A stretch of DNA of 11,881 nt, taken from contig CAZECW010000013.1 in assembly GCA_964510585.1 (NCBI GenBank), forward strand, positions 1 to 11,881, given 5' to 3'. Below are positions 8,316-9,994 of this stretch, in pieces. The stretch comes from an uncultured archaeon (lineage in GTDB: Archaea > Asgardarchaeota > Jordiarchaeia > Jordiarchaeales > Jordiarchaeaceae). Within the stretch, counting starts at the first letter, position 1; each line of letters begins with the position of its first letter. Under the pieces are notes generated by a model, which saw nothing but the letters and a program-made list of their open reading frames with translations, did not search any database and was not told where the DNA came from. The translations under genes and the position numbers were made by a program.

Positions 8316-8837
8316 TTATTTAAATGGTGGTATGTCAACTGGCAAGCCAACTCTCATGAAGAATCTTGCAAAAGCTTGGGATAAGTGTTCTCGGTATGGT
8401 GGCAACAAGCGTAGTCTTTTTCCCCTCCTTTTGGCCAAGTCTATGAGGAAATTGAAGGGAACGCTATAAACGCTTCTAAAGTCAACAACTAAATACTCTG
8501 TTTCAAATCCTTTTATGTCACTCTTGTTCAATAGGTGGTATCCTGGAACATTTCCTTGTCTTAAAGCCTCTTTTCCCCTTCTACTTCTGAAGAAATCACT
8601 TCTATTCTCGAATTCACTTAGGGGCCAAACAGGACAGACTAAAACCAAATCCAGCTTTCTTTGTACAAGATCACAAGATTGACTCATAATAACAACATCA
8701 TATTTAATAATTTCAACATCTAGCTCATCAGATATTTCTGAGGGGGGCATTACAACGGGGCATTCTTTGATAAAATCTCCCTGCATAAGGTCCTCCTTAC
8801 CGTTTACGATATCATACCAAGGATATTCCTTTGTCAA
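8316..8837 (-). CDS. Hypothetical protein with a MazF/PemK-like motif layout (QGD...SQSCD...CPV); putative toxin/effector
   Basis: 173-aa ORF with TTG start, GGAGG 7 nt upstream (8845-8849) and a 4-nt overlap with the upstream stop. The fold call is inferred from motif order. Confidence 0.8.
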   Translation of the reverse strand: MTKEYPWYDIVNGKEDLMQGDFIKECPVVMPPSEISDELDVEIIKYDVVIMSQSCDLVQRKLDLVLVCPVWPLSEFENRSDFFRSRRGKEALRQGNVPGYHLLNKSDIKGFETEYLVVDFRSVYSVPFNFLIDLAKRRGKRLRLLPPYREHLSQAFARFFMRVGLPVDIPPFK

Positions 8838-9220
8838 TAAATTCCCTCCGGCTCTGAAACATGCGGCGTTGCCTTTCTGACGTTCTTTACCCTCACCTTC
8901 GCAGTTCCACGTTTTAAAGGAGGCATTCTCACGAAGATATTAAATTCTAGTTCCTCTCCGGGGAAACGCTCAATAGCTTCACGCTCAAAGGTCTCACTTA
9001 TTACTTCAATCCGTGGCATGACGGACGACAGGTCAATTTCAAATAAGGGCATTAATGCCTTGTGAGAAATAGGTATTTTGAGTGATTTCTTCCTTGCCGA
9101 ATTAATTAGTAACTCACTGAGTATTTCTCCAATGTCCATTTCTAGTCCCGCGCTGGGAGTTGAGGAACTCTGAGGGGTATAGTTTTGACTTGTGGTTTCC
9201 TGCCATACTGGCGGATACAT
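8834..9220 (-). CDS. Hypothetical protein, middle gene of the three-gene operon
   Basis: 128-aa ORF whose ATG is 3 nt after the upstream stop, with AGGAGG inside the upstream gene's 3' end. It has an S/T/P/Q-rich N-terminus and a basic, beta-like C-terminus. Confidence 0.75.
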   Translation of the reverse strand: MYPPVWQETTSQNYTPQSSSTPSAGLEMDIGEILSELLINSARKKSLKIPISHKALMPLFEIDLSSVMPRIEVISETFEREAIERFPGEELEFNIFVRMPPLKRGTAKVRVKNVRKATPHVSEPEGIY

Positions 9221-9223
9221 TAT

Positions 9224-9994
9224 TTATTCAAACCTCCTTAATAACTCTCCTTCTATTATCTTAAAAAACCAATCATCCGTCAAACTATGGGCTTTTTCCA
9301 CCCACCCAATAATTTCTTCTTTACTATTTGAAACATCTCCTTTGACTGATTGAACTATCGTTTCCCAAATGAAGGCATCTGCATCCCTTCTTTTCCCACG
9401 TGCAAATCTTAGACGCACCGCCCCACGGGGATTAGCTGAAGGGAAAGAGAATCTTAAATCAATATTCTCAGGAAATTCTCTGACCCCAGTATCTTCAAAC
9501 AACTTTCTATGCATGACTATACCTATCTTCATCTTCTCTTTCAAGAACTTGAAAATATCATTTTTTTCAAAGTCAAAATCAATAGCATCAATATAACGCA
9601 ATAACAATCCTTCAATACTTAAATTCTTTGAATCAGGATGAGCCTCAAAAAGGGCGTCCAACAAGTGAGAAATTCTCCATTTAAAATTCTCCCAAACATA
9701 CCCCTCTGTGTCATTCAAGGTAACAACCCCCGGACCCAGCTGAATAAGTGGCCATCCATTTTCACTTTTCCTGAACCGGTGCTTAACAATGTATCCCGAA
9801 ATTTCATCCGGAATAGTTGCAGTAGGCAACTCTTCATGAAAAGGATACTCATCTTTAACTCTATCATACAAACTGCCAATTAGGATTTTATAATGTGGAT
9901 CCAACTTTAAGCCCGGAGCCTGTTCCTGCAACTCCCACCTCAACTCAAATATAGCCTCTAAAAGAGGCTTGTTCCTCAAGATTTTTCTGGCCAT
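9224..9994 (-). CDS. TIGR04255-family protein
   Basis: 256 aa with characteristic motifs KPLLEAIFELRW, RF...LIQLG...TLN...Y.WENF, LLLRYIDAI and a terminal W.EKAH...DWF helix. GGAGG lies 7 nt upstream (10002-10006). Confidence 0.85.
   Translation of the reverse strand: MARKILRNKPLLEAIFELRWELQEQAPGLKLDPHYKILIGSLYDRVKDEYPFHEELPTATIPDEISGYIVKHRFRKSENGWPLIQLGPGVVTLNDTEGYVWENFKWRISHLLDALFEAHPDSKNLSIEGLLLRYIDAIDFDFEKNDIFKFLKEKMKIGIVMHRKLFEDTGVREFPENIDLRFSFPSANPRGAVRLRFARGKRRDADAFIWETIVQSVKGDVSNSKEEIIGWVEKAHSLTDDWFFKIIEGELLRRFE

Follow-up and report, generated by a model that had tools for sequence, protein, structure and literature searches.

Three co-oriented genes at positions 8316-9994 of an 11,881-nt stretch of archaeal DNA (contig CAZECW010000013.1; Asgardarchaeota, Jordiarchaeaceae; the whole stretch is referred to here as the window) raise the question of whether they form a functional unit and to which class of genetic module such a unit would belong. 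An earlier reading of the DNA letters (the sequence-only reading) had proposed a three-component system composed of a TIGR04255 protein, a linker protein and a MazF/PemK-like effector. The analysis presented here shows that the genes, designated g1, g2 and g3 in their order on the minus strand, recur as a unit in archaea and in many bacterial phyla, that the g3 product has a predicted MazF/CcdB fold and that the g2 product consists of two parts, one of which accompanies g3 and the other g1. The explanation that we prefer, and to which we give about an even chance of being correct, is that the locus is one copy of a horizontally mobile tripartite toxin–antitoxin (TA)-like cassette, in which g3 would be the effector, g2 a two-part antidote or adaptor and g1 the protein that controls the antidote.

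Organization of the locus

All three genes are encoded on the minus strand, and each is preceded by a GGAGG site. A 3-nt gap separates the g1 stop codon (9224-9226) from the g2 start codon (9218-9220), and a 4-nt overlap, TTGA (8834-8837), joins the g2 stop codon to the g3 start codon; direct reading of the sequence thus agrees with the layout that had been described, and the close spacing may reflect the translational coupling suggested at the same time. The features of the locus, with gene limits taken from the open reading frame (ORF) list and the two parts of g2 delimited by alignment and profile, are as follows.

9994..9224, minus strand: g1, encoding a TIGR04255-family protein of 256 aa, ATG start
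9220..8834, minus strand: g2, encoding 128 aa, ATG start
8837..8316, minus strand: g3, encoding 173 aa, TTG start
8966..9220, minus strand: N-terminal part of g2 (residues 1-85), acidic
8834..8965, minus strand: C-terminal part of g2 (residues 86-128), carrying a basic motif
10002..10006, minus strand: GGAGG, 7 nt upstream of the g1 ATG
9233..9237, minus strand: GGAGG, 12 nt upstream of the g2 ATG, within the end of g1
8844..8849, minus strand: GGAGGG, 6 nt upstream of the g3 TTG, within the end of g2
8235..10333, minus strand: extent of the transferable unit, the stretch common to the same-genus genome G118, where its surroundings are different

Family-wide conservation supports the TTG start of g3: W7 and Y8 precede the first ATG, and they are retained by over 90% of the distant members. 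Because the gene order is conserved in dozens of species, g1, g2 and g3 are real genes rather than chance ORFs. The GC content of the module is 39%, versus approximately 46% in the neighbouring genes.

Distribution and conservation of gene order

Relatives of g3 have been found in 525 species (species-representative genomes) belonging to both domains, and they form 5898 clusters at 90% identity and 2105 clusters at 50% identity. The family extends over Asgard, methanogenic and other archaea and many bacterial phyla, with 70-90% identity across domains and phyla, and its closest relative, 91% identical, is that of Candidatus Jordarchaeum madagascariense. The identity of the relatives to the window proteins is 70-91% for g3, 43-89% for g1 and 27-71% for g2. 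Among the public runs listed as carrying the sequence, the DNA hits are hot-spring metagenomes, and none is an RNA run.

The order of the genes was examined in 78 distinct species loci. In 45 of them, from archaea and many bacterial phyla, the order g1-g2-g3 is retained, which bears out the expectation that the three genes are conserved as a unit. Another 27 loci lack g1 despite sufficient upstream DNA (one of these carries a divergent TIGR04255 gene), while six are situated at contig edges. No alternative first gene shared by the two-gene loci was revealed by an all-against-all BLAST comparison.

Two examples of such loci have been noted. In a Nitrospirota metagenome-assembled genome (L005:5684-6519), a two-gene form encoding proteins of 106 and 172 aa is inserted between fabG and acpP in a fatty-acid synthesis operon, and its small gene matches part of the profile of the g2 N-terminal part, which suggests a recent loss of g1. 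On the chromosome of Promethearchaeum syntrophicum MK-D1 (L058:4986-5516), a g3 relative of 58% identity is preceded by tightly linked unrelated ORFs, none of which is a TIGR04255 gene.

The two-part product of g2

The g2 product is divided into an N-terminal part that carries conserved short motifs in the alignment and a C-terminal part with a motif of the form D..VRMPP.K.Y.....VK.I.KA.P.IVEPE, and the isoelectric points of the two regions differ strongly (4.7 for residues 1-90 and 10.5 for residues 91-128). Searches against Pfam, NCBIfam, PADLOC and PHROGs yielded no match for g2, and no AbrB/RHH-type or other recognisable DNA-binding domain was found in it. The protein has no confident fold of its own (the Atlas model has a predicted local distance difference test score, pLDDT, of 0.37), which is common among antitoxins.

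The g2 alignment was treated as two profiles, one for each part, and these were searched over the 78 loci. The C-terminal profile matches 70 of the 78, independently of the presence of g1, and a small ORF ending in the g2-type motif is situated upstream of g3 in nearly all of the approximately 80 species loci; a small gene adjacent to and co-conserved with the effector gene is the arrangement of type II TA systems. The N-terminal profile, on the other hand, matches 32 of the 45 loci with g1 versus 2 of the 27 without it, counts that are descriptive rather than a statistical test, as the loci are mutually related. The 32 matches include 11 of the 24 three-gene loci that were outside profile building, and the median length of g2 is 130 aa in loci with g1 versus 102 aa in those without. 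These patterns in the sequences show that one part of g2 goes with g3 and the other with g1, and the linker or adaptor role assigned to g2 by the sequence-only reading is upheld in this form. In a structure prediction of the complex of g1, g3 and g2, with g2 as the partner, the score was 0.11 against a mark of 0.32, which applies to a calibration that differs from a three-chain job, and it speaks neither for nor against the proposed contacts.

Fold and conserved residues of g3

No Pfam (E<=1), NCBIfam or PADLOC model matched g3, its only PHROGs match was an unannotated phage family (phrog_4575, E 8e-7), and a search of PDB sequences with the g3 profile returned nothing meaningful. The AlphaFold2 model of g3 (pLDDT 72.6) nevertheless has relatives at the level of fold. 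The 15 best matches among 48,161 PDB representatives in VIA-align are all MazF/Kid/CcdB or ToxN/AbiQ/CptN proteins, with Z-scores of 8.9-5.1, and the next match has a Z of 4.5. MazF is the top match (Z 8.9, root-mean-square deviation 3.6, 109 residues aligned), and CcdB reaches Z 7.5. In Foldseek searches MazF is again the first match in the PDB (E 1e-3), and 11 of the 13 top BFVD entries are PemK-like or endoribonucleases. On its predicted model, g3 therefore falls within the MazF/CcdB fold superfamily, which is built on the SH3-like barrel of MazF, Kid, CcdB and ToxN.

The sequence gives a different picture. The PemK/MazF family PF02452 has no match in the whole genome, although control genomes were matched, and an hhalign comparison of the g3 family with 13 archaeal PemK proteins returned a probability of 1.5%. 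The designation MazF/PemK-like, proposed initially, is thus valid for the fold of g3, on which three structure libraries agree, and fails for membership at the sequence level. The only invariant residues of the archaeal PemK alignment are an Arg-Pro pair, which the non-significant hhalign alignment places opposite Y46-D47 of g3, at the start of the YDVVIMSQ strand, where there is no conserved Arg. MazF/Kid endoribonucleases cleave RNA by means of a catalytic Arg and a Thr/Ser situated in the groove of the dimer.

The g3 family has a conserved set of residues of its own, which was computed over 140 representatives that are 38-60% identical to g3. It includes W7, Y8, Q19, G20, D21, Q53, C55, D56, K61, C68, G95, H101, R141 and R143, together with a C-terminal helix, and the SQSCD motif singled out by the sequence-only reading proved to be a true family signature, with Q53, C55 and D56 kept in 96-99% of the representatives. 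The signature can be summarized as follows.

Residues 19-21: QGD
Residues 53-56: QxCD
Residue 101: H101
Residues 141 and 143: R141/R143
Residues 147-166: PYREHLxQxFARxxMRVGLP, the C-terminal helix

The g3 product is probably a toxin. As a separate observation from the ESM Atlas/AlphaFold DB clusters, a g3-like fold forms the C-terminus of a 374-aa protein annotated with a response-regulator receiver domain.

The TIGR04255 protein g1

The assignment of g1 to TIGR04255 was confirmed by a full-length NCBIfam match (E 1.7e-40; 139.4 bits, the cut-off being 30; profile coverage 2-252 of 252). NCBIfam describes TIGR04255 as a 'sporadically distributed protein', and the family is without an assigned function. 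According to a six-frame search, g1 is the single TIGR04255 copy in the 3.78-Mb genome. Its subfamily is tightly conserved (43-89% identity) and tied to the g2-g3 pair. A Pfam search found no family at E<=1, a PDB sequence search gave nothing meaningful, and phrog_5464 was the sole match, a weak one, in PHROGs.

The AlphaFold2 model of g1 (pLDDT 89) displays a two-lobed, curved antiparallel beta-sheet with helices on one face. Its structural neighbours are weak and mixed, including guanido kinase/McsB (Z 7.3-7.8), S-adenosylmethionine decarboxylase, glutamine synthetase and the TATA-binding protein, all with template-modelling scores below 0.4. Identification of g1 with any of these four was rejected, their Z-scores of 5-7.8 being among the values that the tool itself regards as common (Z<8). 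SecB and other chaperone folds are absent from the listed structural neighbours of g1, which is not proof of absence; as no Pfam family matched at E<=1, and the TIGR04255 match covers the full length, g1 does not match SecB.

The TIGR04255 fold also occurs elsewhere in the ESM Atlas and AlphaFold DB clusters. It recurs in other TIGR04255 clusters of the ESM Atlas, one of which is half viral, and in a 436-aa Bacteroidota cluster it is fused to AAA_17/AAA_18 P-loop domains.

TIGR04255-led loci beyond the window subfamily

Of 400 genomes of the phylum, 44 contain TIGR04255 genes, as does one of the five other genomes of the genus. When 25 distant TIGR04255 loci, from the same phylum and outside the window subfamily, were read by eye from ORF listings, almost all showed a TIGR04255 gene followed on one strand by a variable middle gene (69-266 aa) and a third gene. 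Among these 25, jackhmmer placed the third gene of 14 in the g3 superfamily, while in one locus it encodes a GNAT acetyltransferase (E 1.3e-6) and in another a weakly HEPN-like protein (E 0.016, below the cut-off). In five Asgard loci (L095, L099, L104, L105 and L106), long middle genes of 203-266 aa are followed by a recurrent third gene of 150-155 aa with no Pfam match, possibly another effector family.

Since distant TIGR04255 genes repeat the three-gene layout with an exchanged third gene, the trio is not peculiar to the window and represents one well-conserved subfamily within this wider arrangement. A generalization that we put forward tentatively, as a real possibility, is that TIGR04255 proteins represent a new, domain-spanning class of third component that controls varied toxins (g3-type MazF-fold, GNAT, HEPN-like and others) via modular two-part adaptors. 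They would then define a large undescribed tripartite TA or anti-virus family in Asgard and other archaea and many bacterial phyla, with g3 as a new catalytic variant of the MazF fold.

Mobility and decay

Within the genus, the cassette is patchily present and undergoes decay. It is intact in two genomes, G000 and G118, in differing surroundings: blastn aligns positions 8235-10333 with the G118 locus (L007) at 85.5% identity over 2125 columns, and the flanks are not collinear. G119 is syntenic with the window at its radical-SAM and deoxyribosyltransferase genes, and the slot between these two genes is filled by 1162 bp of other DNA, which contains (L120:2604-3234) a 173-aa ORF and an overlapping 72-aa ORF, one product being HEPN-like by eye only. 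This slot may be a hotspot for TA-type cassettes. A decayed cassette is found in G120 (L118:1531-2796), where g3 is in two pieces and what is left of g2 and g1 is the C-terminal 53 aa and an 80-aa fragment, respectively.

Beyond the genus, the settings vary. Some copies adjoin restriction-modification genes, transposases, an MNT/HepT pair, AAA_15/21 ATPases or ThsB-TIR, while others sit in housekeeping operons, for example between fabG and acpP. No convincing terminal direct or inverted repeats or hairpins that would bound the unit were detected in 7900-10400.

Comparison with known systems

The cassette shares several features with the type II systems MazEF, Kid-Kis (PemIK) and CcdAB, namely a small upstream gene that overlaps the effector gene, an effector with the MazF/CcdB fold, an upstream protein without a stable fold of its own and a mobile, patchy and decay-prone module. 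However, g3 is approximately 60 residues longer than these effectors, with an inserted helical segment (73-93) and the conserved C-terminal helix, it has other conserved residues (QGD, QxCD and PYREH), and it fails the PF02452 and hhalign tests described above. In addition, the proposed neutralizing tail of g2 is basic instead of acidic, g2 has no AbrB/RHH-type domain that could be found, and a larger third gene leads the g1-g2-g3 operon.

The toxin–antitoxin–chaperone (TAC) systems provide the second comparison. The cassette resembles them in having three genes, in an extra antitoxin segment that is present only alongside the third component and in the use of one kind of third component with toxins of different families. 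The TAC chaperone gene is generally placed last, whereas g1 is the first gene of its operon. Furthermore, g1 is a 256-aa TIGR04255 protein with a two-lobed sheet and not SecB, and the segment of g2 that tracks g1 is N-terminal, while the chaperone addiction domain (ChAD) of TAC antitoxins is a C-terminal extension. Because g1 is not SecB-like, the comparison is an analogy and not membership. In TACs, a SecB-like chaperone is combined with HigBA, MqsRA, HicAB or CmdTA (PMC5105189, PMC6377645, bioRxiv 10.1101/2024.02.24.581848), and a sensor role in abortive infection and phage defence has been described (bioRxiv 10.1101/2024.02.24.581848).

The type III toxins ToxN, AbiQ and CptN have the same broad fold as g3 (Z 5.1-6.5 over 116-121 residues) and a similar size of approximately 160-170 aa. 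They are abortive-infection RNases whose antidote is a repeated RNA, whereas the gene that precedes g3 encodes a protein with a conserved peptide motif, and a search of the region revealed no repeats.

A search with PADLOC 2.0.0 supports the view that the module is not an already named defence system: g2 and g3 had no match, and g1 matched AbiEii alone and marginally (E 0.008, 13.7 bits, 67 residues). No paper naming TIGR04255 or its InterPro or CHP names was found in the literature searched, and a search on tripartite, MazF-like and HEPN systems found a general review only and nothing on the cassette. The account of 'Class 8' hicBA loci in Gerdes 2024 (PMC10865869) includes long HicB proteins with three domains but does not name TIGR04255.

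Proposed mechanism and alternative explanations

In the mechanism that we propose, the effector would be g3, a protein with the MazF/CcdB fold that represents a new sequence family and would most likely arrest growth as an endoribonuclease. Its active site would be its own, centred on the invariant QxCD loop, H101 and the PYREH helix at the C-terminus. The basic C-terminal ~40 residues of g2 would bind and neutralize g3, while its acidic N-terminal ~85 residues would dock on g1. Through the N-terminal part of g2, g1 would control the antidote by maintaining its stability and competence, and g3 would be freed when g1 is lost, titrated or triggered. The outcome might be addiction of the host to the mobile unit and/or abortive infection; phage sensing and stress-induced dormancy, which had been suggested at the outset, are conjectural roles. 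For g1, a stabilizing function is favoured by analogy with the logic of SecB-dependent TACs, with a sensor function nearly as likely.

Several points weigh against this reading. The confidence of the g3 model is only moderate, and a sequence-level link to MazF/PemK is absent, as is an evident counterpart of the PemK Arg-Pro pair among the aligned conserved residues of g3; for these last two reasons, similarity of fold does not establish RNase activity. CcdB, which shares the MazF fold, is a gyrase poison. The structural matches of g1 are in the common range, and the protein could equally be an enzyme. Autoregulation by g2 is left unexplained, since it has no recognisable DNA-binding domain, and its basic C-terminal motif is unlike the acidic, RNA-mimicking tail of MazE. 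Moreover, the 27 loci without g1 indicate that it is dispensable for the core g2-g3 pair, and a tblastn search with g3 against phage and plasmid collections found no close relative.

The most probable alternative retains the same cassette and makes g1 its sensor or trigger, which would recognize a virus-derived protein or nucleic acid, or a small molecule, on its concave sheet and remove or inactivate g2, releasing g3 in an abortive-infection defence. The combination of a constant first gene with interchangeable third genes is one that defence systems sharing a sensor typically show, some copies are located next to genes of the defence-island kind, viral members account for half of one TIGR04255 structural cluster, and the saddle-like sheet of the g1 model could serve as a binding surface. 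Nonetheless, no PADLOC model matched beyond the marginal AbiEii hit and several copies are located among housekeeping genes, and as a complete explanation we rate it as unlikely.

It is more doubtful still that the functional unit is the g2-g3 pair, an ordinary type II TA system in which g1 is an accessory passenger or regulator without contact to g2 or g3. Such an arrangement would account for the loci without g1 and for the far better conservation of g3 than of g1 or g2. However, the position, strand and tight spacing of g1 are kept in the 45 loci of both domains, the N-terminal part of g2 occurs almost exclusively together with g1, and the layout recurs at distant TIGR04255 loci with different middle and third genes.

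Least probable is that g3 is an enzyme with a Cys/His/Asp-type centre (C55, D56, H101, E150, H151) on a MazF-like scaffold, serving protein or nucleic acid modification or processing outside genetic conflict, while g1 and g2 would carry substrate or cofactor: the invariant Cys-Asp pair and conserved His and Glu, their absence from the conserved PemK columns, the missing sequence link to PemK and a cross-domain identity more usual for strongly constrained enzymes speak for it, but patchiness, genus-level decay, unrelated insertion sites and swapped toxin-type third genes fit a selfish conflict module better, and matches to papain-like peptidases (Z ~3) are far below that to MazF.

Genomic surroundings of the cassette in the window

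The window also contains two HEAT-repeat proteins, a fragmented TnpB/IS605-like gene, a PRiA4_ORF3-domain protein, a radical-SAM protein and a nucleoside 2-deoxyribosyltransferase-like gene. TA remnants, pseudogenes and an insertion sequence had been claimed to surround the three genes; the fragmented TnpB/IS605-like gene is indeed found, approximately 6 kb away, while TA remnants within the window were not confirmed. Additional observations on these neighbours are listed below.

2-646 and 2531-3505, plus strand: two HEAT/Armadillo-repeat proteins that flank the TnpB remnant, with mutually alike repeat regions; relatives adjoin the cassette in the Jordarchaeum contig (L007)
1158-2366, plus strand: TnpB/IS605 OrfB-like gene spread over at least three frames, probably a frameshifted pseudogene
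1653-2366, plus strand: last piece of the TnpB-like gene, matching Cas12f1-like_TNB (E 3.6e-15) and OrfB_IS605
4269-4808, plus strand: 179-aa protein in which a PRiA4_ORF3 domain (E 3.7e-18) precedes a Cys-rich tail resembling a zinc ribbon
10322-10726, minus strand: nucleoside 2-deoxyribosyltransferase-like gene (E 1.9e-26), immediately upstream of the cassette; it also matches TIR_2 weakly and has paralogues in same-genus genomes

Significance

The cassette is real and widespread and, in the literature searched, apparently undescribed, and it resembles MazEF-type and TAC-type modules while being a member of neither. If the proposed reading is correct, it would provide a context for three families without an assigned function, namely TIGR04255, the g2 adaptor and the g3 family with its 5898 clusters and 525 species. 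It would also introduce a new form of control of a TA pair by a third protein, which parallels the SecB-dependent TACs and is built from unrelated parts. The QxCD loop of g3 could not be related to the conserved residues of PemK/MazF and may represent a new activity on an old scaffold. Finally, relatives of the cassette are found in Asgard archaea, including the cultured Promethearchaeum syntrophicum with its two-gene form, which may offer an experimentally accessible relative.

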